A stretch of DNA of 64,000 nucleotides from a virus. Under the pieces are notes generated by a model, which was not told where the DNA came from, ran no database searches, and saw nothing but the letters and a program-made list of their open reading frames with translations. Below are positions 19,798-51,890 of this stretch, in pieces. A program made the translations under genes and the position numbers. Position 1 is the first letter of the stretch; the number at the start of each line of letters is the position of its first letter. The stretch covers positions 1-64,000 of IMG/VR virus record IMGVR_UViG_3300020438_000021; one strand, given 5' to 3'.

Positions 19798-19898
19798 TAT
19801 GTTTATCCCCTTCTTTTTTCAAAAAATGGGCTGGAATTTTTTTGACACTAGCAAAAGTTTTTTCCTCCATTCCTTCCCATTCCCAAGATAAGACTTTA

Positions 19899-20120
19899 TC
19901 ATTCATCAGTTGTGTAGTCAGAAAGCGATGTTTGTCTGTATATCTTATTGTTAATCTCTCTAATTAACTCTGTAACGCCTGATTTTATTAAGTTCATTTT
20001 CTTGTGTAAATCCCTTGGCAGAGTACCTGCATTCTGTATATTGTTTATCTCTTTCACAATCTCTCTTTGTAATTTACCTGCTTTTTCCAGCATTTCCTTT
20101 AGGTGTTCTTCTTTGACCAT
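19899..20120 (-). CDS. small helical protein with C-terminal PIP-box-like QTSLSDY
   Basis: Start reassigned to ATG 20120. Confidence 0.6.
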   Translation of the reverse strand: MVKEEHLKEMLEKAGKLQREIVKEINNIQNAGTLPRDLHKKMNLIKSGVTELIREINNKIYRQTSLSDYTTDE

Positions 20121-20285
20121 GCAATCAATCGCATAACCCCTCAGTAAATGAATCTTAACTTCAGAGATTAAAAAACAACAGGAAAAAAATTTTGGCATAT
20201 GGTTGGATATTATTACTAAGGATGTAGAAATACCAATCCTTGCCAAGTATAAATACCCTCAATTCTAGAATACTTGTAAACTGCT

Positions 20286-20357
20286 ACCATATGGTAACAC
20301 GAACTTTCGTAAAGCGTAGCGGTGTTACCTCATTAACCGAGGAGTCAGGACAGTGAC
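20286..20357 (+). promoter_or_regulatory. structured promoter repeat, copy 1 (rightward)
   Basis: ACCATATGGT + stem GGTAACAC/GTGTTACC around ACTTTCGT + TCATTA. Confidence 0.6.
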
Positions 20358-20544
20358 AGTAGTTGCATGGATAAGGATTCATACCCGGCTCATTGCTTAG
20401 ACTAGTCCGGCTTCATCTAAGTCTAATTGCGCTGCTGCACATATTCGCATGTCGAACTTACTGTTTGTCCATCATCCCCAGTTGTTCCCTTAAGGGGTGG
20501 AGTGTGATTGAGCAGTTTTAATTCCTGCTCAGGAACTGTTATGT

Positions 20545-21282
20545 TCACTCTTCTTCCGAAGAGGCTTTGTCTCTTGCTTCTCTCAGCATCTCAATGACTG
20601 AGGGCTTGCATTCAGATGAGTGCTTTGACACTACATCAAACTTACAAGAGATAATTGGTTCTTCTGTTGGTTTATCGTATATCTCCGAGTAGAAGATGCT
20701 CTCAAAGATTGACTGTATCTTACCCATCATCGGTGTAGGTAAATCAACCAAGTGTTTCTCGATGACATCAGACTTCTGAACTCTGTCAGTAGACCACTCA
20801 GCAGTGAAAGTCAAGGTGCTAGAGTATGAATATGCCTTGAAAGACACATACAGTTTGACAACTGCTTCACCTACTTCGTTTTCTGATACGATATGGAACT
20901 TCTGACTGTAAGAGCCGAAGTGATACGGGACATCCAAGAAAAGAATTGTCTCACCACGCCACTGTGGGTCAACAACCTTAGAAGTGGTCTCCTGTGTGAG
21001 AGTAGGCTCATCGTTTACTTCAAGCCCTTGTGCTATTAGTTGGTTTATGACTGATTGAGCATCGCTTCGATAGTTGAATACTAACTCACCGTTATACATC
21101 ACGACAGTATACTTATCAACAGTGCTTTCAATAGTCTGAGGCTCATAGGATGGTATCTCAGTATCCCACTTATCCACATTGACTATGTTATGACGAGATA
21201 ACTCAAGGTTGAACAACTCCTTCTCACTGCTATCTAGCCCGAAAGGATATGATATCTCTACTGTTCTCTTGTGCAACTGCAT
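20545..21282 (-). CDS. hypothetical protein (accessory region)
   Basis: 245-aa ORF. Confidence 0.7.
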   Translation of the reverse strand: MQLHKRTVEISYPFGLDSSEKELFNLELSRHNIVNVDKWDTEIPSYEPQTIESTVDKYTVVMYNGELVFNYRSDAQSVINQLIAQGLEVNDEPTLTQETTSKVVDPQWRGETILFLDVPYHFGSYSQKFHIVSENEVGEAVVKLYVSFKAYSYSSTLTFTAEWSTDRVQKSDVIEKHLVDLPTPMMGKIQSIFESIFYSEIYDKPTEEPIISCKFDVVSKHSSECKPSVIEMLREARDKASSEEE

Positions 21283-21459
21283 TCAAATCAACTCCTGAAC
21301 ATTAGCAAGTCCTGCTTTGAGTTCTGCTATCGCTAGAGATAGGTCATCACCACGAACCTTGATGCTCTTGATGATGAGAACATGGTCAGAGCCTGATTTG
21401 GCATGACCAAGTTCTATTTCGTATGCTGGCGTTAGTATTGGCAGTTGTTGTGCTTCCAT
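21283..21459 (-). CDS. small hypothetical protein (MEAQQL...), probably leaderless
   Basis: ATG 21459 lies 22 nt after TCATAA. Confidence 0.65.
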   Translation of the reverse strand: MEAQQLPILTPAYEIELGHAKSGSDHVLIIKSIKVRGDDLSLAIAELKAGLANVQELI

Positions 21460-21533
21460 GACCCTACCAATCGTCATCGCCTTATGAGGTAAGGCCGTCT
21501 GCGACTCTACGAAAGTTTACCTTACCATATGGT
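21460..21533 (-). promoter_or_regulatory. structured promoter repeat, copy 2
   Basis: ACCATATGGT, stem GGTAAGG/CCTTACC, ACTTTCGT loop, TCATAAGGCGATG, 22 nt to ATG. Confidence 0.75.
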
Positions 21534-21553
21534 AGTCATACTTTGTCCCTCGG

Positions 21554-21589
21554 ACTACCTCAAAGACCGATAAATCGGTCTAAGGGTAG
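21554..21589 (-). terminator. 3' hairpin after gene 21614..22087
   Basis: AGACCGA-TTTA-TCGGTCT, extended by CTACC/GGTAG. Confidence 0.45.
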
Positions 21590-21613
21590 CGTAGAGGTGC
21601 AAGGACTACCTAA

Positions 21614-22087
21614 TCAGTTGTCCTCCTTGTGAGCAGATACAAACCCGCTCTCAAGTTTGCCCAATACTGTTGCATTGAGCATGTTTTCGTTGTTGCCCCA
21701 TGATGTCATAGGGTTGCCGTCTTCGTCTTTCCTTCCGGCGAAGGTTGTGTGATACTCATAAGCATCTTCCGCCATTGTGATAGTGGTGATGCCATCGTTC
21801 GTTGATACTGATATTAAACCAGCCCAAACTGCTTGCAGTTCTGCGGATAGCCTCTGAACACCCGATGCTCGGCTTCCGCCAGTGCGTCCTCTTAGTGGGC
21901 TGTCGTCAAAATCAGACAGAATATCCTTGATAGTCTTTGAATATCTGACTTGCTCCCTTGGGCTTTCTGTTCCCTTGATGATGAAGTTCTTTGCCATTCC
22001 AGCAGTGAACTCATCCACTTGGGCATTCTCTGAGTCGCAGTATGCGACTACTTTCTCGCTAAATTCATTCCAATTTTCCATTGCCAT
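21614..22087 (-). CDS. hypothetical acidic protein
   Basis: ORF track; GGAG RBS. Confidence 0.7.
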   Translation of the reverse strand: MAMENWNEFSEKVVAYCDSENAQVDEFTAGMAKNFIIKGTESPREQVRYSKTIKDILSDFDDSPLRGRTGGSRASGVQRLSAELQAVWAGLISVSTNDGITTITMAEDAYEYHTTFAGRKDEDGNPMTSWGNNENMLNATVLGKLESGFVSAHKEDN

Positions 22088-22130
22088 ATTTTTTCATCTC
22101 CGTTATAGTGTGTCGCACCTCTACGACTAC

Positions 22131-22193
22131 AACCATACACTAGTTCATCGCCTTATGAGGTAGCCTTTGACGAAAGTTTGACTACCATATGGT
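22131..22193 (-). promoter_or_regulatory. structured promoter repeat, copy 3
   Basis: ACCATATGGT, GGTAG/CTACC stem, ACTTTCGT, TCATAAGGCGATG. Confidence 0.75.
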
Positions 22194-22227
22194 GGGAACT
22201 TTGTGCAAGACACCCCAAGGGTAGAGA

Positions 22228-22249
22228 GGACAGCCCCGAAGGACTGCCC
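22228..22249 (-). terminator. cUUCGg tetraloop hairpin
   Basis: GGGCAGTCC-TTCG-GGGCTGTCC, with G-U pairs on the minus strand. Confidence 0.55.
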
Positions 22250-22339
22250 CCTCATTCAATTGACTCAATAATGAGAGGCTTCTTTCAAATCTGCCGTTCT
22301 TAACCTGCCCATTATACTCAAGAATTGAGCCTGTTGAGT

Positions 22340-22645
22340 TTAAAATTGTTGGAGTATTATTGAGTCTTCGCATTCAATCCAACTCGTATTATAATCTAAC
22401 CATTCTCTAACGTCATCATCAGTTAAGCCCTTAACGTCATATGCTTCTTTAATCTCGTTGAAGTCCTTGTATTCGCTGAAATCGCAACATATAGCGATAA
22501 CATCAAACTCAATTTCTTCACCTATGCCATCCTCTAACTCAATAAGATAATCATAAAGGCATTGAAGGCCGTTCCTGCTGAAGTTGTCGGGTCGTATTTT
22601 CATAAATCCATCAATAAAGTCATATTCGCTTACGTTCTGCTTCAT
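22340..22645 (-). CDS. acidic phage-type hypothetical protein (NFS.NGL..LYDYL...DVIAICCDFSEY)
   Basis: ATG 22 nt after TCATAA; family pattern recalled from marine phages. Confidence 0.75.
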   Translation of the reverse strand: MKQNVSEYDFIDGFMKIRPDNFSRNGLQCLYDYLIELEDGIGEEIEFDVIAICCDFSEYKDFNEIKEAYDVKGLTDDDVREWLDYNTSWIECEDSIILQQF

Positions 22646-22706
22646 GACCTTATGGTTTCACATCACCTTATGAGGTATGCTCACGAAAGTATGCCTACCA
22701 TATGGT
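22646..22706 (-). promoter_or_regulatory. structured promoter repeat, copy 4
   Basis: ACCATATGGT...ACTTTCGT...TCATAAGGTGATG, 22 nt to ATG. Confidence 0.75.
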
Positions 22707-22726
22707 GGGGGACTTTGTAAAGTGAA

Positions 22727-22751
22727 ACGGCACACCCCGAAGGGTGGCGTT
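22727..22751 (-). terminator. cUUCGg tetraloop hairpin directly after a stop codon
   Basis: CACCC-TTCG-GGGTG. Confidence 0.5.
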
Positions 22752-23024
22752 TTAATCTTCTAAGTCCTCGCCTTGACAGTCTAAGTCCTCAATATGCGAG
22801 TCAACGTCAACTGGTATCCATTTACCTGCACTGCATTTATCACAGGCGAAGTAGGCTTCAAACTCGTAGTTATCCACCTCGATGTATTCGCCTTTCATGG
22901 TGTCTTTTGGTATTCTGACTCTGACTCTAACATCCTCGACACTGGTAGATTCGTGTAAACACCCACTGTATCCATCAAGGTAGGCATGGTCAGCAGAAGT
23001 CATTCCATCGGGATAATTACTCAT
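22752..23024 (-). CDS. hypothetical protein (MSNYPDG...) with CxxC
   Basis: Start reassigned to ATG 23024. Confidence 0.65.
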   Translation of the reverse strand: MSNYPDGMTSADHAYLDGYSGCLHESTSVEDVRVRVRIPKDTMKGEYIEVDNYEFEAYFACDKCSAGKWIPVDVDSHIEDLDCQGEDLED

Positions 23025-23065
23025 TGTCCCACAACTCCCAAATGTATTCATCAGTTTCTACTCTC

Positions 23066-23244
23066 ATCTTAAGAATCAAGATTTTCACCTCTGACATCCA
23101 TTAAATACGCATCAGTTTCACATTTTGGGCATCCTTTCCCAAAACCATCTCCATCTTCAAACAACACCAAATCTTCTTCCTCTCCTTTCCACATACACAT
23201 ATTGCATCTGACTGTATCAATCTTAAGAGTCAAGGTTTTCACCT
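23066..23244. repeat. 25-bp direct repeat (23066-23090 and 23220-23244) flanking a Zn-ribbon gene
   Basis: atcttaagaAtcaagAttttcacct versus atcttaagaGtcaagGttttcacct, 23/25 identical. Confidence 0.8.
23069..23233 (-). CDS. small Zn-ribbon protein (CNMC...CPKC)
   Basis: TTG start behind GGTGA. Confidence 0.65.
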   Translation of the reverse strand: MTLKIDTVRCNMCMWKGEEEDLVLFEDGDGFGKGCPKCETDAYLMDVRGENLDS

Positions 23245-23348
23245 TCCCATCCACAGTCTTCACACCATGCACAATCAATAGTACCTAAATAAGCACCCGT
23301 AATTGTTACTACTTCCTCACATCCTTCACATTCCATATCGTATTCCAT
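23223..23348 (-). CDS. 41-aa Zn-ribbon micro-protein (CEGC...CEDC)
   Basis: Translated by hand; ATG abuts the upstream stop; GGAGG RBS. Confidence 0.55.
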   Translation of the reverse strand: MEYDMECEGCEEVVTITGAYLGTIDCAWCEDCGWEGENLDS

Positions 23349-23741
23349 TTATTCTTCCTCCTGTTGCATCGCTCTTTCAAACGCATCGAACTCTAACTGA
23401 TTCAATCTAACTAACCAGTTCTTGTATTCCGTGTTAAACTTCCTCTTGTCGTATGTTGAGACATTGCATGACCAATCGGCATCCTTCAATCTCTGACAGA
23501 ACTCAATAGTCATTATTTCGTAAAAGGCACTCATCTTGTATATCTCGTTAGCGAAGTTGCAGAGTAACATTCTACGTCTGAACTCTTCAGGAGTGATTTT
23601 TGCTCCTCCATATCTAACACTCATACTTCCAACACCTGCATTCTGTGCTAATAGACCGAATCCGAATCCATTAACCAACTGCATCTCACTTTCGCTGAAG
23701 CCTTTCTCTATTCCGTTCACTATTCCTACTATCAGTGGCAT
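23349..23741 (-). CDS. hypothetical protein (MPLIVG...), probably leaderless
   Basis: ATG 23741 lies 22 nt after TCATAA. Confidence 0.7.
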   Translation of the reverse strand: MPLIVGIVNGIEKGFSESEMQLVNGFGFGLLAQNAGVGSMSVRYGGAKITPEEFRRRMLLCNFANEIYKMSAFYEIMTIEFCQRLKDADWSCNVSTYDKRKFNTEYKNWLVRLNQLEFDAFERAMQQEEE

Positions 23742-23803
23742 GACCTTACACAAATCCATCACCTTATGAGGTTAGAGCGAGCAAAGTTGTCTAACCATAT
23801 GGT
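23742..23803 (-). promoter_or_regulatory. structured promoter repeat, copy 5
   Basis: ACCATATGGT, GGTTAGA/TCTAACC stem, TCATAAGGTGATG. Confidence 0.75.
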
Positions 23804-23870
23804 TGCATAATATTCTGAGTTTACGCACAACAGCAGTGCATTTAGGCAGGGTAGTGGGGTGGTGGACACT

Positions 23871-23898
23871 TTATAAGGCGATGAATTGGAATAGGGTT
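23871..23898 (+). promoter_or_regulatory. divergent promoter core TTATAAGGCGATG...GGTT
   Basis: Same core and 22-nt geometry as copies 2-5, but without the hairpin. Confidence 0.55.
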
Positions 23899-24039
23899 GC
23901 TCAGATTCAGTTGTGGGTTTCCATTGGCTGACTCTTATTTGTGCAGTAGTTTCTATAACCGCATTTAGTAGACATTCGCTAGTTGTCTTTATTTATACTT
24001 ACCAAAAACTACTGTTCGGAGAAAGGATGTAAATCACAT

Positions 24040-24400
24040 TCCCTATATGTATATTATATCATATATATCATATGGATATCTAATGACATATTTTCATATT
24101 GCATATCGTAGTGTAATTACAACAATTTCTATTATTCTCATATATTCTCGATATTCTCATTGAGTGAGAAAATTAAAATGTGGCTAAACAGTGTAGAATT
24201 AATGATTATAATTAATATTATCATATTATCATTATTATCATCATCTATACTACTACTACTATGTTACATACTCTACTCTCTCTCTCCTATGGAGAGCGTG
24301 ATAAAATTGATAAAATGATAAAAAGAGCGAAAAACGCAACACTGCTCTAAAGTTGTATTTTATCATCTACTGATAATTTATGATAATAAATGATAAAAGC
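24040..24400. other. candidate replication origin (AT-rich, iteron-like repeats)
   Basis: Non-coding and very AT-rich; TGATAA(A/T)A repeats and inverted TATTCTC/ATTATC repeats; located at the transcription divergence point. Confidence 0.6.
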
Positions 24401-24420
24401 ACAAACAGGTTGGAAATAAC

Positions 24421-24744
24421 ATGACAGAAGAAAAGAACAATTGGGGTGCGAAGACACCAAGCAAAACAGAAGATGCGATGACGGACTCTCAGCGAAAGAT
24501 TGCTGAAGTTTGTGATGAGATGAAGACTATGCTTCTTCAGAAGAACAGGCAGTATGGCGATTCAGTGTTGAATCCTAGTAGGTTCTTTTCTCATGCAGAC
24601 CAAGAAGAACAAATCAAAGTCAGAATCGATGACAAGTTGAACAGGCTTGTTCAAGGTAATGACTCACTAGAATCAGATGACGATATCATAATGGATTTGA
24701 TAGGTTATCTGACTCTACTACTTGTCTCTAGAAGAGATGAGTAA
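24421..24744 (+). CDS. nucleotide-modification-associated (DUF1599/Nmad1-like) all-alpha NTP pyrophosphohydrolase-like protein
   Basis: KNRQYGDS...RIDDKLNRL...DLIGY motif. Confidence 0.75.
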   Translation: MTEEKNNWGAKTPSKTEDAMTDSQRKIAEVCDEMKTMLLQKNRQYGDSVLNPSRFFSHADQEEQIKVRIDDKLNRLVQGNDSLESDDDIIMDLIGYLTLLLVSRRDE

Positions 24745-24747
24745 TCA

Positions 24748-25300
24748 CACTCCACAAACGTTCGTAGAACCAAGAGCATCTTAGCGGTTGCTCGGTGAAC
24801 GTGGAGACTTGGGGGTTTCCAAGTAATAAGAAGGAAAGATGACAGGGTCGTGACAGAAACGAAGAACATGGAGTCTAGCGACAATATCAGTATTCGTGGA
24901 AAACGAGTTCGTTCGATGAGGTTTGGTTAATTCCGAATCGTGGAACAATCGAATGGCTTTGCGCTATAAAAAATAAAGCAGGTTAATTCGGTCACATAAA
25001 TAACATTGGCAATGTGTTCTACCACAATGCAGTTCCCTACCCGTAGGTAATGGCACAGGACAGACTTTCTTCCCCCCTCTCAATTCAAACATCGGTTTAC
25101 TGCGGTAAAAAATGCAAATCAATAGCAGTGATGGAATCATCTCCTCCATGCATTTATCCGATATCACACTCGCAAGAGCAGAGTTTTACTACAAGATAAA
25201 AAAGACAGAAACGTGTATCGAAACACGCTGGAATTGTTCGGTGCTAATATCGCTAGTGGTGTAGGCTGTGGCGGTCTATGTCTTTCTCTGCTATTACATT
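24748..25300 (+). ncRNA. candidate large structured non-coding RNA
   Basis: About 550 nt without a credible ORF; many nested helices plus UNCG and GNRA tetraloops. Confidence 0.45.
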
Positions 25301-25319
25301 CAATTAACAATAGGAGGCA

Positions 25320-25898
25320 ATGAAAATGAATATATTTACTTTAGACGAAAACCCAAGAACAAGTGCAAAGATGATGCTGGACAAGCATGTGGTCAAGATG
25401 CCAACCGAGAGTTTGCAGATGCTATTTACAATAGTTGACCATGTTGGCTTGGAAGCAGGTTGGAAGCCTGTGATGTTGAATCACCCATCTACCATTTGGG
25501 CGAGAGAGTCACAACAGAACTTTCGCTGGTTGCGTGAGCATACCTATGCACTGTGCAGGGAGTATACTCACAGATATAGCAGGATTCACAAGGTCGAGGT
25601 TCTGATGAACAGATATGCAGAACAGATGGATGAGGCAACTTGGCTTCTTCCTGATATTGGGTTGACTCCCTTTGCTATTGCTATTTCTCCTCACATGGAG
25701 TGTAGGAAGGCAGATGACTTTGATGGCATGACAACAATCGAGAAGTATCGTCAATACTATCTTGATGACAAGTGGCGATTCGCTTCTTGGACTAAGAGAG
25801 AAGAACCGGAATGGTGGCCGAAAGACCACTATCTGAAAAAGTCGTTTGACTACAAGCAAGAGGCAAACGCATTACTAATGAGGTTGGGATTGGTATGA
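25320..25898 (+). CDS. pyrimidine-dimer DNA glycosylase (DenV/Pyr_excise-like)
   Basis: MNIF.LD..P...DKHVVKM..E..Q...HPSTIW. Confidence 0.8.
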   Translation: MKMNIFTLDENPRTSAKMMLDKHVVKMPTESLQMLFTIVDHVGLEAGWKPVMLNHPSTIWARESQQNFRWLREHTYALCREYTHRYSRIHKVEVLMNRYAEQMDEATWLLPDIGLTPFAIAISPHMECRKADDFDGMTTIEKYRQYYLDDKWRFASWTKREEPEWWPKDHYLKKSFDYKQEANALLMRLGLV

Positions 25899-31018: not shown

Positions 31019-32183
31019 AACAAGTTCATTTCTTTGTAAGACCAATAGATACCACAGGCATCTAACTTCAAGGAACGTTAATCGCTATGGTGAAATATAC
31101 ATCAGGATAACTAACAGAGATAGTCTATCAAAGAAGAAGTTTCATGAGAACGCTTATTGGAACACGTTTGCGAAGCATATGTATGATATATTCGTGCAGA
31201 CTAATGAAAACAGTAAGTCCGATGAGAGGACATGGATAACATTCCGATACCCGAATGGTGAGGCTTCAGTCATACTACGAAAGACTGGTAGCACTATCTA
31301 CATGAATGGTGTGAAGAAGAACCAAGTCGATGTGTCTATGGCTCTTGCCAAGATTATTGCCTATGGTTCTATGACTAGATGTGCAGATACGATGGAGTCA
31401 TATATTGACAGGAACGTTACTTACTCTGCGAACATACTGTATGCATTACAGAACAGAACGCCTTATTGGATGTTCTCTGAAGGCACTCAGTATAATGTCA
31501 AGATTAACACTAATCTAATAAGCAGGGAAGAAGTGGCATTTGAGATTTCAAAGAACATTTGGGGTTCGTTGCCTATCGAGGAAGCAAACACATTCATCGA
31601 CTGTTACAGGAACAAAGCACAGAGGTCAAAGAAATGGGCTAACATCAGCCCTTCTAATTTGTGGTTCAATATGTTTGGCTCTCATGCCACTGAGTCAGAA
31701 GAGGCTTTGATGAAAGCGTGGTTGATGCAGAACAGAACTGATTGGATTGTGGAAGAGAGAGCATTCACCTTACTGAAAGGAATGGATAAGAAAGAGCAAT
31801 ATACATTAGTTGACTTAAAAAAGCCACCTTTCTCTAATCTAAGATTAGAAGGCAAATCTAAAAACTATCATTTTGCCATGCATATTAAAGGACAGTTGGG
31901 AGATTGGCTGTGTTATCCTAATAACAACCAATCAGGAACACAAAGATGTAAGTTGGTGTTCCTCACTTCTCTTAATGAGTTTCAAGGTCCATTCTGTGTT
32001 GATGATGTCAATGGAAGAAATGTAATGGGAGACCAAATATCAACGAGGTCAACCCTCGTCTACAATGACACCGTGGCGACTAAGATTGTCAGGACTCTAA
32101 CTGATGTCAAGGCAACTAACTTCAGAGTTCCCGATGCAACGTTAAAGGCTGCTAGATTCACGGAGGACATAACATGGAGATAG
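30942..32183 (+). CDS. hypothetical protein; C-terminal GPFCVD motif, possible divergent E2-like domain
   Basis: 413-aa ORF; the Cys motif resembles E2 GxICLD; function is inference only. Confidence 0.55.
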   Translation: MKEMVMIMKIKMELPRIRSDRERTTETSSFLCKTNRYHRHLTSRNVNRYGEIYIRITNRDSLSKKKFHENAYWNTFAKHMYDIFVQTNENSKSDERTWITFRYPNGEASVILRKTGSTIYMNGVKKNQVDVSMALAKIIAYGSMTRCADTMESYIDRNVTYSANILYALQNRTPYWMFSEGTQYNVKINTNLISREEVAFEISKNIWGSLPIEEANTFIDCYRNKAQRSKKWANISPSNLWFNMFGSHATESEEALMKAWLMQNRTDWIVEERAFTLLKGMDKKEQYTLVDLKKPPFSNLRLEGKSKNYHFAMHIKGQLGDWLCYPNNNQSGTQRCKLVFLTSLNEFQGPFCVDDVNGRNVMGDQISTRSTLVYNDTVATKIVRTLTDVKATNFRVPDATLKAARFTEDITWR

Positions 32184-33076
32184 TCATGGCATGTCCTGAA
32201 TGTGGAGAGCATGATAGTTTCTTTGATGATGTGCTAGGTGAGAATGTATGCAATGGTTGTGGGTTGGTTCAAGTTATCAGGCCGTTTGAGGAAACCACAT
32301 CAATAATAAAGGATGGTAATCAAACACATGAGCCAACGAGAAGGTTAGGTTCTCTAATCATGGAGACAAAATCCAACTATAATCATAATCAGATGGTTAG
32401 AATGAAGAAGCACAACCTGTATGCGGCTGCGTTGTCTGAGGCAGATAACAGGACTATCGTTTTATCTCAGATGATTCTATCTAACTATCAAGTCAGTTCC
32501 TCTATCAAGAAGAAGGTAGAGGAATACCTTCGTTCTCTGAATATTGAGCATGTGTTTAGAGGTGCTTCTGTTGAACACAGAGCAGCATCCTTGACCTTCT
32601 TCATATTGAAGGAAAGCAAAGTGCCTATGAACATAAGAGAGCATAGTAGATACTCGATGGTTGAGAGGAAGTATATCTCACGTTGGGGTAAGAGAGTAGC
32701 AAGGCACTTCAGGAAGTCATATGTATTCACACAAGAGAATGCTATGAGAACGGCATCATCCATCTTAGATAGATTGGATGAGATACCCACAGGATATCGA
32801 ATGGAAGCGATGAGCATGATTCAGTTCTTGGAGACCTTCTACCAAGAGCAGCATTTGAGATTCTCACCGAACAAGGTTGTTGCTGGATTGTGGGTCGCAG
32901 GAAGAATGCAGAGAAAATACAGAGTAACTCAAGAAAGTCTAGTGAAGGCTTCGGGTAACACAACATCAGCAATGGGGTTGAGAGAACAGGTGAGAGAGAT
33001 GCAGAATATGTTCGGTCTATCGAAAGAAGACCTATACAGCCTATCTGTGTCTGATTTTGTATCAGGAGCGTATTAA
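32174..33076 (+). CDS. tfb: viral transcription factor B (TFIIB/TFB) homolog
   Basis: N-terminal CPECG..D...GENVCNGCGLV Zn ribbon; two cyclin-like repeats (RG.S.E..AA; P..V.AG.W; VTQ). Confidence 0.82.
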   Translation: MEIVMACPECGEHDSFFDDVLGENVCNGCGLVQVIRPFEETTSIIKDGNQTHEPTRRLGSLIMETKSNYNHNQMVRMKKHNLYAAALSEADNRTIVLSQMILSNYQVSSSIKKKVEEYLRSLNIEHVFRGASVEHRAASLTFFILKESKVPMNIREHSRYSMVERKYISRWGKRVARHFRKSYVFTQENAMRTASSILDRLDEIPTGYRMEAMSMIQFLETFYQEQHLRFSPNKVVAGLWVAGRMQRKYRVTQESLVKASGNTTSAMGLREQVREMQNMFGLSKEDLYSLSVSDFVSGAY

Positions 33077-45211: not shown

Positions 45212-45979
45212 ATGAGAATAGAAATAAACAATAAAACACTAACAAACGCAATAGAAGATGTATGGATGAAAGGAAAGTATCACAATGGCGATTCAGCAAA
45301 GAACGGTCAATTAACCGATTATGCAATGCTTGAACTCGTTGAAGGTAATATACTGAATCTATACAATGCTGACAATCAAACCATCTGTCGAGTGTCTGTA
45401 CCTATAATTAGTCAGACAAACGAAGACAGCAATAATATGGTTGTAGTAGAGATAGACAAGATACTCAAGTATCTTAAGACATTCACAGGAGACAGGGTTC
45501 AGTTAGTTGCTGAAGACTTTATCCTATTACAAGACGAAGGCGGAGGAAAGAGGGCAAGTTTACCACTAGTTGTTAATCATCCTAATGCAGCGATGATTGC
45601 TAGGATTCAAGGCTACACTATTACTCCTGAGAATCCTGTCTTTAGTAGTGTGGTCTTTGAGTCTATCATTACCACAGGCTCTAAGATACTAACAGATGCA
45701 ATCAAGACTTGTGATGTTATCAACAACGCAAAGTATCTGTTAGATACAGACAATCAACACTTCACCATTTCAAGCAGGAAGTCTGACATTGACAAGGTAG
45801 ATGTCATAGTTTCTACGCTATCTATGAATGGTGAATCAGCAACGGTAGAAGTAACTGGTCAGTTCCACAAGTTCTTTCGTGGTTCTGTTCCTGTGACTAT
45901 CTACTTGAAAGACGAGTCTCCTGTTATATGGGCAGGAGAGGATAGAATACTAATCAAAGCCCCATACATTACAAGGTGA
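45212..45979 (+). CDS. pcn: PCNA-like sliding clamp
   Basis: About 255 aa with clamp-like pattern (AD...CRV.VP; EIDKILKYLK; IYLKDESPV; IKAP); directly upstream of PolB. Confidence 0.75.
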   Translation: MRIEINNKTLTNAIEDVWMKGKYHNGDSAKNGQLTDYAMLELVEGNILNLYNADNQTICRVSVPIISQTNEDSNNMVVVEIDKILKYLKTFTGDRVQLVAEDFILLQDEGGGKRASLPLVVNHPNAAMIARIQGYTITPENPVFSSVVFESIITTGSKILTDAIKTCDVINNAKYLLDTDNQHFTISSRKSDIDKVDVIVSTLSMNGESATVEVTGQFHKFFRGSVPVTIYLKDESPVIWAGEDRILIKAPYITR

Positions 45980-47664
45980 TTACAATGATAATAGCAAACA
46001 CGAAAGAAGGTATCTTCCTGAGATGGAGAGATGCAGAGAAGAAGGTTGTAGAGGAAGAGATTCCCTATGCCGACTTCTCTCCATATTTCTTTGTGGAGGC
46101 TTCTAATATCGTTAATGTTGACGCTGAATCTAAGGTTTTCTTGAAAGAGGGATACCAACAGAAGGATAAGTTTCCTGCAACTCTAACTTATGAGAGCGGT
46201 GATTGGGTAAACCTTCAAGGTGATTCACTTGTGAAAGTGACATGGACACCACATAAAACTATGAAATCCGATGCTAGGAATGTAACGAGTAAAGTTAGAG
46301 CATACTATCATGATAGAGACATACCAACGTATGAAGCAGATGTTCAACACCATTATCGATATGCTGTCGATAGATTGGATAAACTGAACGATTACAATCT
46401 AAGGAAATGGTATTGGGATATGGAATGGATGCAAGGTGGAGAGCATGATGGTGCGATTACTGCTATCGTTGTCTACGATAACTATGATGATGAGTATTAC
46501 ACATTGACATGGCTTCCTGATTCAAGTGAGACTGAGAGAACAGTGCTTGAGAGATTCATGTTGATGCTAACTGAGAAAGACCCTGACATGCTTATCTCAT
46601 GGTTCGGTTGGAAGTTCGATGTACCTAAGTTAATCGAGAGGCTACACACAAATGGAATCGACCCAAGACTACTATCTCCTGTTCACGAAGTAACAGGTGT
46701 TGAATGGAATATCAAGGAGAGAAAGAGAATACTGAAGACTAAGCAGATAGAGAACTACTCTCCGATTGCTCAACCAATCAAAGGTAGAATATGCGTACCT
46801 CTAGACTTGGCCTTTGAGAGACAATGGAATGATGCACAAAGAGGAACTTTACCTTCACTGTCACTAGACTATGTTTCAGAGTATGTCTTAGGTGAGAAGA
46901 AACTAGTGAGCGAGAAGTTTCCCGATAAGAATGAGTTCTTCAGGAGAGGCTGGCAAGAAGACAATGAGACATATCTAGAGTATGCCTTGAAAGACGTTGA
47001 ACTAATCAAGAGGATAGACGATGAGAACTTCACAACTGAAGCAATACTCTCGTTACAACGTTTACTGATTGCACCGTTCGATGCTTGCTTCTACGCTAGT
47101 AACATGGGTGGAATATACTTCATGAGAAATGCCTCATGGAAAGCACCTACGGGCAGGAAAGGAGACAGGGTAGAGTATGATGGTGCGATGGTCTATGACC
47201 CGCTTAGTGAAGGCACAAATGGTCTTCATTTGGGTGTTGCAGCATTTGACTTCGCTGGTCTGTATCCAAGCATGATGATTGCAAGAAATATCTCTTGGGA
47301 GACTAAGTCTCAGACACCTACACAATTTGGTGTAAATCTTAGAACACCAAAAGACTTCTCTAAGGTAGAAGACTATGACATGAGATACTACAATAGTAAT
47401 GAACTAGGGTTATTGCCAAAAGCAGTTCTAGAGTTGAAAGAACTGAGAAACGAATACAAAATGAAAATGAAAGAAAGTGAAAGTAAAAGTGAATATGTGA
47501 AATGGAACAACAACCAACTTGCAGTCAAGAGATTGATGGCATCCTTCTATGGTATCATTGCGTATCAGGGATTCGGTTGGGCTGATGTTGATTTAGCGGC
47601 AAGCATCACTGCTAGTGCTAGAGAAGCCATTCGCATTGCAGCATTCAAAGTGAGGGAACTATAA
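45976..47664 (+). CDS. polB: family B DNA polymerase, N-terminal part (3'-5' exonuclease + motifs A, B)
   Basis: WDME, FDVP, YALKD exonuclease motifs; FDFAGLYPS; KRLMASFYG. Confidence 0.92.
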   Translation: MITMIIANTKEGIFLRWRDAEKKVVEEEIPYADFSPYFFVEASNIVNVDAESKVFLKEGYQQKDKFPATLTYESGDWVNLQGDSLVKVTWTPHKTMKSDARNVTSKVRAYYHDRDIPTYEADVQHHYRYAVDRLDKLNDYNLRKWYWDMEWMQGGEHDGAITAIVVYDNYDDEYYTLTWLPDSSETERTVLERFMLMLTEKDPDMLISWFGWKFDVPKLIERLHTNGIDPRLLSPVHEVTGVEWNIKERKRILKTKQIENYSPIAQPIKGRICVPLDLAFERQWNDAQRGTLPSLSLDYVSEYVLGEKKLVSEKFPDKNEFFRRGWQEDNETYLEYALKDVELIKRIDDENFTTEAILSLQRLLIAPFDACFYASNMGGIYFMRNASWKAPTGRKGDRVEYDGAMVYDPLSEGTNGLHLGVAAFDFAGLYPSMMIARNISWETKSQTPTQFGVNLRTPKDFSKVEDYDMRYYNSNELGLLPKAVLELKELRNEYKMKMKESESKSEYVKWNNNQLAVKRLMASFYGIIAYQGFGWADVDLAASITASAREAIRIAAFKVREL

Positions 47665-47861: not shown

Positions 47862-47974
47862 ATATAGAAAAGTGGTCACAAGACAGATTTGCAACACTAG
47901 CATTGGCTAGAACAGTATTTGGCTTTCTAAAAGTCATAATTGCAGTAATTGTAGCAGTGGAGTTGGTATTATGA
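47858..47974 (+). CDS. 38-aa membrane micro-protein inside the split polB
   Basis: Translated by hand: MNIEKWSQDRF...IIAVIVAVELVL; ATGA overlaps on both ends. Confidence 0.55.
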   Translation: MNIEKWSQDRFATLALARTVFGFLKVIIAVIVAVELVL

Positions 47975-48906
47975 AGGTAGTTTATGGACATACGGACTCG
48001 ATTTACGTTGATATTGAAGACAACAGCATTGAAACTGCTGAAAAGGCGTTGAAAATACTGAATGAACATGTTAGAGAGGCATTTCCTAATGTAATGGGCT
48101 TGAAGGAACATCCTGTAACACTAGAGTTTGAGAAATACTTCAGAACTTTAGGTGTTGGAGCAACAAAAAATAGAAATGCAGGTCTAATTACTTGGAAAGA
48201 TGGTAACTTCCTTGATGAAGAAGAGTTTGTGATGACAGGATTCACTGCAAAGAGGGTTTCTCTGACTAAACTAGCCAAAGATGTTCAATTGTCAGTGCTT
48301 AACATGTGGGTTGAGGGTAAATCGGAGCAAGAAATAGTCTCTTATCTGAATGATAAGTACAATTCTGTCATGCAAGGTAAGATTCCACTATCAGATGTTC
48401 TACAAAGAAGTAGATTCCGTGAAGAAAGGTTCAGATTAGTATGCAAGGTATGCAATCCAAAGGCTAGATTCGACAAAGGATGGAGTAACAAGTCAGTTAG
48501 TGTGTTTGACTTGATGCAACATGGTGGATGTATAGATGACATGGGTAGAGTAATGGAGCATTCTAACTTCGTTACTGTTGGAGGCAAGCGACCAACATTT
48601 GGTTCGGGAGTTGAGGGAGTGCTGTTTAGCCATTCACAGGGATATGAAAAGATAGAGGATACCTATCTTTATCTTAGAATCAAGAATTGCAGGGAGCATT
48701 ACATGCATCCTGTAACTAGGGAGTTCACAACTCCCAATTATGTATCTAGATTAACTGCCGATGAGTTTGATGACTTTGACCCTGATTGGTCACATTATGC
48801 AGAATCGGTAGTTAAGAAAGCAGAACCTATCTTCAGAGCAATGGGATGGAACACAATGCAGATAAAAAGAGACACACAGCAATCCTCTTTGGAGGAGTGG
48901 TTTTGA
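47971..48906 (+). CDS. polB: family B DNA polymerase, C-terminal part (motif C, thumb, PIP box)
   Basis: VVYGHTDS, LEFEK, KNRNAG; C-terminal QSSLEEWF. Confidence 0.9.
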   Translation: MKVVYGHTDSIYVDIEDNSIETAEKALKILNEHVREAFPNVMGLKEHPVTLEFEKYFRTLGVGATKNRNAGLITWKDGNFLDEEEFVMTGFTAKRVSLTKLAKDVQLSVLNMWVEGKSEQEIVSYLNDKYNSVMQGKIPLSDVLQRSRFREERFRLVCKVCNPKARFDKGWSNKSVSVFDLMQHGGCIDDMGRVMEHSNFVTVGGKRPTFGSGVEGVLFSHSQGYEKIEDTYLYLRIKNCREHYMHPVTREFTTPNYVSRLTADEFDDFDPDWSHYAESVVKKAEPIFRAMGWNTMQIKRDTQQSSLEEWF

Positions 48907-48927: not shown

Positions 48928-49809
48928 ATGAGACAAAGTAATACAAATGAATACACATACCAATGGAAGCCTGAGAATTACGGACAAGAAGGAGAACCAA
49001 TTTTGAAGATATCGAAGTCTTCTTTGGGTTCTTATCAATGGTGTCCTAAGAGATACGAGTTTCAATATGTTGAAAGAAGACCAATAGAAACAACAGAAGT
49101 GATGATTAAAGGAAGCATAATACACAATGCTAGAGAAGCATTCTTCAATTCCTTTGACATAAAGAAGGCTGAGAATCTCTCGCATGAAGAACTTGTCAAC
49201 TACTGTATGAGTCTCCATCCAATAGATGATTATACTGAGATGTATGAAGCAATGTCTATCTTTGAAGCAAACAGGTTTATGGAATCGAGTGCAGAAGGCA
49301 CAACCCATGATTTCGTTCCTGTTGTCAATGAGGTAATGTTAGATGCTAAGATTGAGATAGGTAGGAATGAGAATCCAAAGTACGAACTTTCTCAGAACTA
49401 CACTGTTCACTTACAGGGAATCATTGACAGGATGTTCAAGGAAGGTGACAGATACATCCCTATGGAATTGAAGACTGGTGGTTGGAAAGACTGGAAGAAG
49501 ACTATGATGCGTAAAGAGATGGCATTCTACAAAATACTGTTTGAGAATACTCCTAATAATGAGTTAGAGGAAATGGGTATTGACCCTAACTTACCCATCT
49601 CTCATTGGGGTTGGTACTATCCTGCTGCCAATTACATCTATGTTGAAGATGCCAAGAAGAGTAGTATGACTGCTGTTAAGAAAGGGATAGCAGAAATGAT
49701 ACATTCCTATGAAACTGGGATATTCCCAACGAAGTATTTTGCAAAGACTTGTTCTAATTGTAGTTTCTTCGGCATTTGCGATGCCGCTAACACAGAGAGT
49801 TGGTTCTAA
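48928..49809 (+). CDS. Cas4/AddB-like PD-(D/E)XK exonuclease with 4Fe-4S cysteines
   Basis: CPKRY, G...H, GIIDR, ELKTG, CSNCSFFGIC. Confidence 0.85.
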   Translation: MRQSNTNEYTYQWKPENYGQEGEPILKISKSSLGSYQWCPKRYEFQYVERRPIETTEVMIKGSIIHNAREAFFNSFDIKKAENLSHEELVNYCMSLHPIDDYTEMYEAMSIFEANRFMESSAEGTTHDFVPVVNEVMLDAKIEIGRNENPKYELSQNYTVHLQGIIDRMFKEGDRYIPMELKTGGWKDWKKTMMRKEMAFYKILFENTPNNELEEMGIDPNLPISHWGWYYPAANYIYVEDAKKSSMTAVKKGIAEMIHSYETGIFPTKYFAKTCSNCSFFGICDAANTESWF

Positions 49810-50283: not shown

Positions 50284-51208
50284 GTTTGTTAACTGGTTCA
50301 ATTCCTTTAATGGGAAGATGAACTGCTATACGACAGTCTATGACTTTGAACACTTCAAGAACGAGGTGAAGATGGAAAACTCTGTTGTATTAGATAGAGC
50401 GTTTCTAGATTTCGATGCCCATGATGAACCACTAGAGAATGCTTATGAAGACTTGAAGAATGTGATATCTAAATTAACGTTAGAGGACATTATATTCAAA
50501 ATGTATTTTAGTGGAAAAGGCTTCCATGTCTTTGTCTATGGAGAACCAGTAGATGATATCAGAAGCATTCAGCAGTATTATTCCGAAATCAGTGATGGTA
50601 TTGATACGCTTGATAGAACGGGTATCCAAACTAATAGACTAAGAAGACTACCAAACTCAATGAATCTAAGTAGTTCTGATGAGAATGGTAATCCCTACTT
50701 CTGTATACCTCTTCTAATTGAAGACTTTGAAGGTAATCTAGATGATATATTGGGAATGGCTAAGAGACCTAGAAAGGTAGTATCGAGTAATGGGACTAAA
50801 CTAGCAGTGTTCCCTGAGATGAAACCAATCGAAATGAGCGACATTGAAGTAGAGATTCCTACTCCTGTCGGTAAGATTCCAATCCTTCCATGTCTACACA
50901 ATGCTATCATGGTTGAGAATCCTAGTCACTATGCTAGAGTATACCTCGTTCAGTGGTATCGTGACCTACTAAGTATGGGTAACAGGAATCCTACTCCTGA
51001 GCAGAACAAACAAATCACAACTACCATAATGAGTGAACTTGACACAATAGCATCAAAAACCGACATATGGCTTGATTGGAATGCGCCTACTACTGAGAGG
51101 TATGTTAGGGGAATCGTTGACAAAGGCTACAATGCTCCAAGTTGTGGCAATGTTCTGATTCCTCAAGGCTACTGCGTAGGAAAGTGTTGGAGGTATCATG
51201 ATGGATAA
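50198..51208 (+). CDS. archaeo-eukaryotic primase (PriS with fused PriL-like C-terminal Fe-S domain)
   Basis: FLDFD, SGKGFH, RLRRLPNS; PC...YNAPSC...CVGKC. Confidence 0.85.
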   Translation: MKMPREVWAGSHLRNAPQMKRRVVKTKSEFVNWFNSFNGKMNCYTTVYDFEHFKNEVKMENSVVLDRAFLDFDAHDEPLENAYEDLKNVISKLTLEDIIFKMYFSGKGFHVFVYGEPVDDIRSIQQYYSEISDGIDTLDRTGIQTNRLRRLPNSMNLSSSDENGNPYFCIPLLIEDFEGNLDDILGMAKRPRKVVSSNGTKLAVFPEMKPIEMSDIEVEIPTPVGKIPILPCLHNAIMVENPSHYARVYLVQWYRDLLSMGNRNPTPEQNKQITTTIMSELDTIASKTDIWLDWNAPTTERYVRGIVDKGYNAPSCGNVLIPQGYCVGKCWRYHDG

Positions 51209-51890
51209 ACTAAAGATTGACAGCAGAGAAGACTCAGAACTCTCTGAATTAGTGGAGACTTACTGTAACGAGTTGACCATACCATACGAGAAAGAATGGT
51301 TGGATATTGGGGACTACACCTTTGCTGATGTTTGTTTTGAAGCGAAGTCCACGTTTGATTTCCTCTCATCTGTGATTAACAAAAGACTTTGGAATCAGTT
51401 GGATAACATGGATGCCAAGTTCGTCAACAATGTTGTTATTGTATACGGTAGTTTCAACGATGCTTTAGAAAACCACTTGCATTATGTCAACAACAAAGCA
51501 GGACAAGCAAGAATGCTAAGAAACAAGTTTGATGGCGCATTCGGTAAGATAATACTAGACACTGATGCAAACATAATTTGGGTTTCATCTGCTAGGCAAG
51601 CAGCGAGATTGATTGCTGTTGTTTGCAAGATGCACCCAATAGATAGGGAGATTCACACGCCTTCTATAATTAGAAAGCGTATAGCAACTACCGATTTGAG
51701 AATAGATGTGCTATGCACAGTAAAGGGCATAAGCCCTAAGAAAGCAAAACTCCTGATGGAAAAGTTCGGCTCTATCATGGAGATAGGAGAAGCATCCATA
51801 GAAGAAATATGTGAACTGGATGGTTTCGGTAAAGTGTTGGCTAAGAGGCTAATAGATGTGCTGAACAAAGAAGATAAAATGGTGATATAA
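51198..51890 (+). CDS. ERCC4/XPF-family nuclease with HhH2
   Basis: IDSRE, GDY, EAKS; VKGIS/LDGFG HhH. Confidence 0.85.
   Translation: MMDKLKIDSREDSELSELVETYCNELTIPYEKEWLDIGDYTFADVCFEAKSTFDFLSSVINKRLWNQLDNMDAKFVNNVVIVYGSFNDALENHLHYVNNKAGQARMLRNKFDGAFGKIILDTDANIIWVSSARQAARLIAVVCKMHPIDREIHTPSIIRKRIATTDLRIDVLCTVKGISPKKAKLLMEKFGSIMEIGEASIEEICELDGFGKVLAKRLIDVLNKEDKMVI

Follow-up and report, generated by a model that had tools for sequence, protein, structure and literature searches.

Palindrome-hairpin cassettes with covarying arms as probable promoters of an accessory gene block in a putative magrovirus-type virus

Five palindrome-hairpin cassettes in an accessory gene block

The DNA analyzed here (the window, 64,000 nt) comprises bases 1-64000 of the 79,174-bp virus record IMGVR_UViG_3300020438_000021 of IMG/VR, and the subject of this work is a repeated element that lies between small leftward genes of this virus. 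For this region an initial annotation, made from the sequence alone, had described five promoter cassettes, each composed of a palindrome, a hairpin with variable but complementary stem and a TATA-like box. All five copies and their parts are located as described (Table 1). We read the five elements as autonomous terminator-operator-promoter expression cassettes for an accessory gene block, a reading to which we assign a probability of roughly 60%.

The exact palindrome ACCATATGGT (10 bases) is confined to 20286-23803 and is found nowhere else in the whole record, and the reversed pattern, used as a control, gave 0 matches in the whole record. Each palindrome bears an inverted repeat, in which GGT and a variable arm are followed by an ACTTT(C)G loop, the complementary arm and ACC. 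Copies 1-4 share the exact loop motif ACTTTCGT, which reads ACTTTGCT in copy 5, and TCATAAGGYGATG, which adjoins the hairpin, is exact in copies 2-5. The stems differ from copy to copy. In copy 3 the stem GGTAG/CTACC can be extended to GGTAGTC/GGCTACC with one T.G pair, and the stem of copy 4, missing from the list in the initial annotation, contains one G.A mismatch. The joint probability of the five window stems alone is about 1e-10.

In copies 2, 4 and 5 the TCATAA hexamer is separated by 22 nt from the ATG, the A of which is the 23rd nucleotide, confirming the spacing that had been noted for three copies. Copy 3 differs, as a leader of about 40 nt with the ribosome-binding site GGAGATGA precedes the ATG at 22087. 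Upstream of the palindrome, copies 2-4 carry terminator-like hairpins with T-runs; scans for sigma-70 promoters and intrinsic terminators say little about an archaeal system. An AAAGT...ACTTT dyad around the palindrome of copies 2-4, which had been taken to allow an alternative structure, is present, but its AAAGT turned out to be the loop motif of a second, mirror-image hairpin across the palindrome.

The genes borne by the cassettes encode small proteins, for which no family match was obtained and of which none has a known function. The 101-aa protein is very acidic (phrog_9974). Three adjacent proteins of 41, 69 and 99 aa (22752-23348) contain CxxC pairs and acidic C-terminal ENLDS/EDLED tails and look like paralogous zinc-binding mini-proteins in one cassette unit.

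Table 1. Location of the cassettes, their parts and other features discussed in the text (positions in the window unless a relative is named; strand as given by the analysis)
Feature	Position	Strand	Parts and remarks
Copy 1, inverted closing copy	20286-20335	.	palindrome 20286-20295; hairpin GGTAACAC..GTGTTACC 20293-20329; TCATTA 20330-20335
Conserved structured non-coding region	20339-20503	.	about 165 nt, between gene 20545-21282 and copy 1
Cassette 2	21457-21581	-	terminator-like hairpin AGACCGA..TCGGTCT 21564-21581; hairpin GGTAGTC..GACTACC 21531-21559; palindrome 21524-21533; hairpin GGTAAGG..CCTTACC 21488-21526; TCATAA 21482-21487; ATG 21459
Cassette 3	22127-22253	-	terminator-like hairpin ~22226-22253; hairpin GGTG..CACC 22191-22214; palindrome 22184-22193; hairpin 22159-22186; TCATAA 22153-22158; RNA 5' end proxy 22127
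Cassette 4	22643-22749	-	terminator-like hairpin with TTCG loop ~22728-22749; weak upstream hairpin GGTG..CACC; palindrome 22697-22706; hairpin GGTAGGC..GCATACC 22674-22699; TCATAA 22668-22673; ATG 22645
Cassette 5, first of the leftward block	23739-23803	-	palindrome 23794-23803; hairpin GGTTAGA..TCTAACC 23770-23796; TCATAA 23764-23769; GGTGATG; ATG 23741
Cassette-borne genes	20545-23741	-	130; 41, 69, 99; 101; 157; 58-64; 245 aa
Promoter core TTTATAAGGCGATG without hairpin	23870-23883	+	rightward from cassette 5
TFB/TFIIB homolog	32174-33076	+	300 aa; zinc ribbon and both cyclin repeats
Family B DNA polymerase, split in two ORFs	45976-47664 and 47971-48906		about 300 nt apart
Cas4-like PD-(D/E)XK nuclease	48928-49809
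XPF/ERCC4-HhH nuclease	51198-51890
manA-like RNA (RF01745)	L016, 2118-2354	+	48.6 bits, E 5e-10; below the gathering score of 55.2
manA-like RNA (RF01745)	L015, 3707-3941	-	46.5 bits, E 2e-9; below the gathering score of 55.2

Two exact-pattern scans of IMG/VR yielded about 40 marine viral contigs sharing this layout. In 36 of 36 whole records the 10-mer occurs 3-13 times and always in one cluster of 3-5 kb, and the reversed control was 0 in all 36. Two more distant relatives contain 16-17 copies of the 8-mer core CCATATGG. The copy number of the palindrome tracks the number of units. When the long dyad was searched in 185,579 species genomes, only four unrelated bacterial terminator palindromes were obtained; as the dyad is missing from cellular species genomes, the signal is viral and not a host-genome motif at that stringency. 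In the searched literature the palindrome motif was found in no paper, other than as a primer, and nothing was found on promoters or on the control of transcription of magroviruses, the group to which this virus appears to belong (see below); the magrovirus papers checked do not contain promoter, palindrom or TFB as words.

Promoter activity and transcripts

The hexamer that follows the stem has the consensus YYATAA in 86 cassettes. For a start-codon test 70 cassettes were chosen irrespective of the downstream sequence, and the first ATG opening an open reading frame (ORF) of at least 40 codons was taken. This ATG lies 21-22 nt after the hexamer in 16 of the 70 cassettes, and in 12 further cassettes it is the GATG ATG, in frame at offset 4. 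In copies 2 and 5 of the window this ATG and the one 22 nt past the hexamer share a reading frame. The peak of ORF starts at 21-22 nt is the signature of leaderless archaeal mRNAs, in agreement with the leaderless transcripts proposed at the outset.

In three studies the cassette genes are represented by RNA contigs, which leave out the cassettes, i.e., the palindrome together with its hairpins. Absence of RNA cover was counted only where the flanking genes are well covered, and contigs cannot prove absence. For the 157-aa gene (depth 25-50) the cover extends from 21586-21589 up to 22108, 22118 or 22127, and the contig ending at 22127, with a depth of about 50, stops at the 26th nucleotide after the TCATAA of copy 3. 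The same contig (cyclic; runs X18 and X19) joins 21925 + G + 22127, a junction that fits a reverse transcriptase which adds one base at the RNA 5' end of the abundant 157-aa gene transcript and then switches template. At cassette 4 RNA contigs cover 22293-22613 and the cassette is uncovered, and no RNA contig lies over 21448-21585 at cassette 2, though the upstream gene reaches a depth of 26-50. RNA depth of neighboring genes differs about ten-fold.

A further start proxy comes from two distant relatives (L015 and L016), in which manA-like RNAs follow a cassette (Table 1). In both, the first hairpin of the RNA begins at the 24th nucleotide after the CTATAT of the cassette. To our knowledge, manA RNAs have been known from marine bacteria and their phages and not from archaeal viruses.

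The start proxies agree with each other and fit the archaeal spacing between TATA box and start (about 26-27 nt from the center of the box) and not a bacterial -10 box. The assumption that the host RNA polymerase starts transcription 23-26 nt after the hexamer is therefore supported; starts near the expected distance after TCATAA were one of two points on which the initial annotation had made its reading depend. With the hexamer consensus, the start-codon peak and the RNA end proxies, the interpretation of the repeated elements as promoter cassettes is well supported.

Gene exchange at the cassettes

Replacements between close relatives end at the cassettes. In two genomes (G002 and G007) the DNA corresponding to window positions 22749-23756 is replaced, and homology is back exactly at the GATG of cassette 5. 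In a third (G003) the 130-aa gene at 23349-23741 is exchanged from ATG to stop codon, and in a fourth (L042) one more unit is present at the palindrome of copy 1. The breakpoints hence fall at 22748, 23757, 23739-23741 and the copy-1 palindrome, and an identical cassette 5 is found before four different genes in four genomes. A recombination-prone cassette like the PeSL elements of T4-type phages, one of the roles proposed initially, thus fits. The simplest reading is homologous exchange within conserved junctions, as for PeSLs.

It is unlikely in our view that site-specific recombination is the main function of the element, which would then be a folded-DNA site like attC or a shufflon at which units are excised, inserted or flipped while the promoter travels along. 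A perfect palindrome core with a symmetric central TA would permit inversion as well as deletion, the hairpins, like attC, keep their structure under a changing sequence, each genome has only one cluster, the extra unit of L042 is located exactly at the palindrome, and copy 1 is inverted. Some units also have matching end hairpins. In the window the end hairpins of the units 20286-21524 and 21524-22184 are alike in inverted orientation (scores 10 and 12), with GGTAGTCA.ACTTT at both ends of one unit and homologous loops in the other. However, tyrosine and serine recombinases (PF00589, PF00239) were absent from the record and from five 100%-complete relatives, while the positive controls worked. 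Several breakpoints avoid the palindrome and coincide with the terminator, promoter core or start codon, as homologous exchange predicts, and a role in transcription is evident regardless from the close coupling of hexamer and start codon. The similarity of unit ends is weak overall (12% of 174 units in relatives compared to 6% of random pairs). The units were also considered as transposon-like elements with terminal inverted repeats, which was rejected on the basis of the same weak signal.

Covariation of the hairpin arms

Among 284 unique oriented instances with CTTT[GC] near the palindrome, 50% form contiguous Watson-Crick stems of at least 5 bp, compared to 11.6% in an arm-swap control. 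In addition 75 unique arm pairs were collected, which were anchored on the palindrome and on ACC plus hexamer only and were thus blind to the arms. At variable positions 1-4 the arms pair in cis with frequencies of 0.77/0.60/0.61/0.47, whereas shuffled partners reach 0.44/0.26/0.29/0.22 and partners slid by one base about 0.2-0.3. The mean contiguous run is 2.01 in cis and 0.63 +/- 0.09 after shuffling, and 0 of 500 shuffles reach 2.01. AT, TA, GC and CG pairs are each seen at every variable position.

The same is visible in single orthologs. The arms AACAC/GTGTT of copy 1 are AGTAT/ATACT in the ortholog of L008/L018 with conserved loop, and the arms AAGG/CCTT of copy 2 are AGG/CCT or AGTG/CACT in relatives, again with conserved loops. 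The covariation of the arms is real, and the complementarity of the stems, the second point on which the initial reading depended, is kept in further homologs. An extended pairing of ACCATAT with ATAAGGT was rejected as a general feature; it is restricted to close relatives, since more distant ones do not keep GGT behind the hexamer.

The complementarity could also be without function. In that case promoter and operator would be real, and the paired arms would result from template switching at quasi-palindromes or be leftover inverted-repeat ends. Several arm positions change together between close relatives while the loops stay constant, which fits templated conversion, the stems are short with about a quarter of them poor, and folding energies are ordinary. 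Still, we regard this explanation as improbable. The register of the repeat is constant, as it overlaps the GGT of the palindrome and its ACC stands directly before the hexamer in the anchored cassettes. The repeats are moreover present on both sides of the palindrome and across contigs whose TFBs (see below) are only 20-30% identical, and a neutral process leaves this recurrent placement unexplained.

Symmetry of the hairpins and probable action at the DNA level

Hairpins with a CTTTG loop are about equally frequent on both sides of the palindrome, with 86 on the promoter side and 81 on the non-promoter side, indicating that the hairpin belongs to the palindrome and not to the TATA box. Copy 2 reads GGTAGTC..CAAAGT..GACTACC ATAT GGTAAGG..ACTTTCG..CCTTACC, and beyond its upstream arm come a degenerate box, TCAAAG, and the terminator of the upstream gene. 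In relatives some palindromes stand between two divergent promoters and serve both. Stem and loop are not the same in the two hairpins of a palindrome, and the property that is kept is local self-complementarity and not a single long palindrome.

Base-pair covariation is typical for RNA, and an element that acts as RNA, i.e., as a 5' leader, processing site or terminator with mature ends generated by cleavage, would also agree with the position of the cassettes between co-oriented genes, with the resemblance of the GGTGAT after the hexamer to a Shine-Dalgarno sequence and with the one T.G wobble intermediate in window copy 3. We consider this very unlikely. The RNA contigs omit the element despite a depth of 25-50 in a neighboring gene, the same hairpins stand on the non-promoter side of a symmetric element, and the distance from hexamer to start matches the archaeal TATA-to-start spacing. 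Furthermore, the spacing of 16 nt between GGTGAT and ATG is unsuited to a ribosome-binding site, and there is no excess of wobble pairs over base composition. As the RNA contigs lack the palindrome and the hairpins, the hairpin most likely acts at the DNA level.

The hairpin, and with it the distance from palindrome to TATA box, measures 17-40 nt without any 10-bp periodicity, so that in linear DNA neither the spacing nor the rotational phase of the two is constant. In the folded DNA they always lie side by side. Considering the variable linear spacing and the self-complementary DNA in between in most copies, the folded form with the palindrome directly beside the TATA box may be the functional form, for which we see a substantial chance, well short of even. 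Possible roles of the hairpin are a folded form placing a palindrome-bound factor by the TATA box, a recombination site, or a quasi-palindrome that maintains itself without function.

More tentatively still, the twin hairpins and the palindrome together might be a structured-DNA signal, either a folded or cruciform promoter-operator for a virus factor, e.g., the viral TFB, or a folded recombination site of a recombinase of unknown type. If true, archaeal transcription or cassette exchange would for the first time be seen to require DNA secondary structure as a cis-element. Base-pair covariation within a stretch of DNA that precedes the transcription start and does not appear in the RNA is unusual in any case. 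It points to a role of DNA secondary structure, or to a mutational or recombination process guided by structure, in an archaeal system.

A model for the cassettes

In the reading that we prefer, each junction between two genes of the block would begin with a hairpin that terminates the upstream gene, followed by a symmetric control element [GGT-x-CAAAGT-x'-ACC] ATAT [GGT-y-ACTTTG-y'-ACC] with the palindrome ACCATATGGT between the two inverted repeats and then by an archaeal TATA-like hexamer (YYATAA, here TCATAA) placed against the second hairpin. The evidence supports products that are mostly leaderless mRNAs, with one Shine-Dalgarno-led mRNA in the window and small non-coding RNAs in relatives. 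The invariant palindrome and the CTTTG motifs would bind a putative virus-specific regulator that times the expression of the gene block, which is probably early or anti-host. The conserved junctions may double as recombination joints for gene exchange among relatives, similar to PeSLs.

Several points weigh against this model. Stem length is small (median 5 bp, GGT/ACC counted), just the 3-bp base is left in about 22% of the promoter-side copies, and the folding energies of the single strands are ordinary (z-scores -0.6 to -1.2). G.T pairs outnumber A.C pairs by 37 to 7, a ratio that base composition predicts. Extruding arms of 5-8 bp with loops of 8-25 nt from a duplex is energetically costly without a helper protein. 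A conserved purine-rich B recognition element (BRE) is lacking, as its site is taken by the variable 3' arm with only (W)ACC conserved, though a purine-rich BRE may not be the preference of the host. The RNA starts are proxies from Logan contigs, in which a processed 5' end would look identical, and the early timing of the block is read from the type of its genes and from analogy only.

A role apart from transcription, as origin iterons in replication or as a packaging signal, is hardly credible for the palindromes: they form a single cluster per genome beside a 520-bp AT-rich ORF-free region (23900-24420), but whole genes separate the copies so that there is no array, each has a TATA-like hexamer and, at fixed distance, a start codon or the start of an RNA, and their number follows the number of units.

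With palindrome, hairpin, YYATAA and a start 23-26 nt later, the cassette provides a promoter model that can be scanned for. In related contigs it flags the accessory, probably early or anti-host, gene block and predicts small RNA genes. The cassettes also account for accessory gene exchange among these viruses.

Comparison with known systems

PeSLs of T4-type phages (PMC2839356, PMC4122927) are likewise small composite terminator/promoter cassettes before small variable ORFs of a hyperplastic block, and there, too, indels and replacements between close relatives end in the cassettes. A composite of terminator and promoter in a variable block and exchange ending in cassettes are both found here. 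However, PeSLs carry bacterial sigma-70 early promoters and their stem-loop is a terminator of conserved sequence, whereas the cassettes described here have an archaeal promoter and separate terminator hairpins. Extra hairpins with variable complementary arms flank an invariant palindrome and abut the TATA box. As the geometry is archaeal and not of the -10/-35 type, the element works in a PeSL-like manner and stands outside the PeSL family.

Among tailed archaeal viruses, the nearest published counterpart is a conserved motif before ORFs of the haloarchaeal tailed virus HGTV-1 (Sencilo et al., 2013, as cited in PMC3950731). In the HGTV-1 sequence (KC292026) this motif is an inverted repeat upstream of a canonical BRE/TATA, with the ATG about 23 nt after the TATA box. 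Small individually promoted genes of an archaeal tailed virus, a TATA-like box combined with an inverted repeat and the leaderless-type spacing of the ATG are therefore common to both. In HGTV-1 the repeat CTCCTCG TGGCA CGAGGAG is conserved in sequence, not covarying, and is located about 45 nt upstream of the CGAAAG-CTTAATAC BRE/TATA. Neither ACCATATGGT nor the twin-hairpin symmetry is present.

In viruses of Sulfolobales, small ORFs that are individually promoted and share a virus-specific regulatory sequence are early or anti-defense genes (PMC11065993). Clustered small single genes of unknown function with one conserved virus-specific sequence around the promoter core are also what is found in the window. 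Some of the sequences described there include inverted repeats near the BRE, which were proposed as repressor sites. They differ in that they come from Sulfolobales viruses and thermophile metagenome contigs and have a strong canonical BRE/TATA, and covarying hairpins were not reported for them.

The promoter hairpin of coliphage N4 has a stem of 5-7 bp and a loop of 3 nt and is located near the start site. These hairpin promoters are read by a single-subunit virion RNA polymerase (PMC4496689). A DNA hairpin structure, and not sequence alone, as part of a viral promoter is shared with the cassettes. Here, however, the hairpin lies upstream of the TATA box, at least 29 nt before the start, and most loops have 8-25 nt. 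A virion single-subunit RNA polymerase was not found in Pfam scans of about 35 of the 44 ORFs of at least 150 aa, including an ORF of 2085 aa. The cruciform or N4-type hairpin promoter, which had been one of the roles suggested initially, finds no support in these elements, and neither does a role of LAGLIDADG proteins.

With integron attC sites the cassettes share arrays joined by sites whose folded structure is kept while the sequence is variable. In contrast to integrons, there is no integrase, each cassette has its own promoter, breakpoints are not limited to the site, and R/L boxes or extrahelical bases are lacking.

Virus and host

Magroviruses rank among the most abundant archaeal viruses of the surface ocean and their host is uncultured. 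The virus studied here encodes a portal and a terminase. Its further genes include those for ribonucleotide reductase, an RFC-like clamp loader, an ATP-dependent DNA ligase with three domains, and a family B DNA polymerase whose N-terminal and C-terminal parts are separate ORFs. Its sequence is present in marine viromes and marine metatranscriptomes. The closest cultured relatives of the polymerase are haloarchaeal tailed viruses, with about 25% identity. Group B magroviruses, which are assigned to Marine Group II archaea, combine a split polymerase with an archaeal replisome set (PMC5434244). A tailed-virus head module, the archaeal replisome set and the split family B polymerase are all found in our virus, and because of the latter two its gene content matches a magrovirus-type archaeal tailed virus that is group B-like; the putative Poseidoniales host is taken from the same study (PMC5434244).

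The TFB homolog of the virus is genuine. With a profile from 17 proteins of the family, the solved structures of human TFIIB and of the TFBc of Pyrococcus (P. woesei) were matched at E-values of 1e-22 and 4e-19, respectively, and the protein is found in 10 of 10 motif-bearing relatives that are at least 90% complete (20-96% identity). For the palindrome-hairpin motif it is a candidate factor only. The XPF/ERCC4-HhH and Cas4-like nucleases are structure-specific and could conceivably act on branched or folded DNA. Most other viral genes inspected have GGAGG-type ribosome-binding sequences just upstream and are apparently organized in operons. tRNAs were not detected, and Rfam gave no match in the window at the gathering threshold and none at E-values up to 5 in 19800-25400.

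Further features of the region

At the left end of the block, copy 1 has the palindrome, stem and loop that had been assigned to it. Its box TCATTA is not conserved, as orthologs have TCAATA or TCATCA and L034 has no box. On the minus-strand side of its palindrome a TTTATA (20255-20250) is located about 30 nt on. Probably the hairpin of copy 1 is the upstream-side one of a palindrome which ends the leftward block and serves the minus strand. Its initial description as a promoter copy is thus doubtful for the plus strand. A plus-strand promoter of a non-coding RNA was considered and rejected because the box is not conserved and a conserved helix begins already about 5 nt beyond it.

This helix belongs to the conserved structured non-coding region next to copy 1, for which Rfam gave no match. 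It has a long closing helix, in which four pairs show compensatory changes across seven relatives, and some relatives carry a 60-nt insertion. Marine RNA contigs lie over 20348-20520 and 20418-20557, one of which begins at 20348.

In two relatives (L015 2140-4660 and L016 1540-4240; also in G032 at 86-91 kb) 13-17 palindromes with a spacing of 100-150 nt are lined up in ORF-free DNA. The units of these arrays close with small hairpins bearing a conserved (C)ACTAAGCGTG motif, followed by T-runs, and look like very short transcription units, possibly small RNA genes.

To the right of cassette 5, the core TTTATAAGGCGATG points into the 520-bp AT-rich ORF-free stretch, which is rich in ATATCATAT-type repeats. 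No RNA contigs were found over 23870-24420, which for contigs cannot prove absence. The layout of 23870-24420 resembles the origins of T4 and T7, in which a promoter is combined with an unwinding element.

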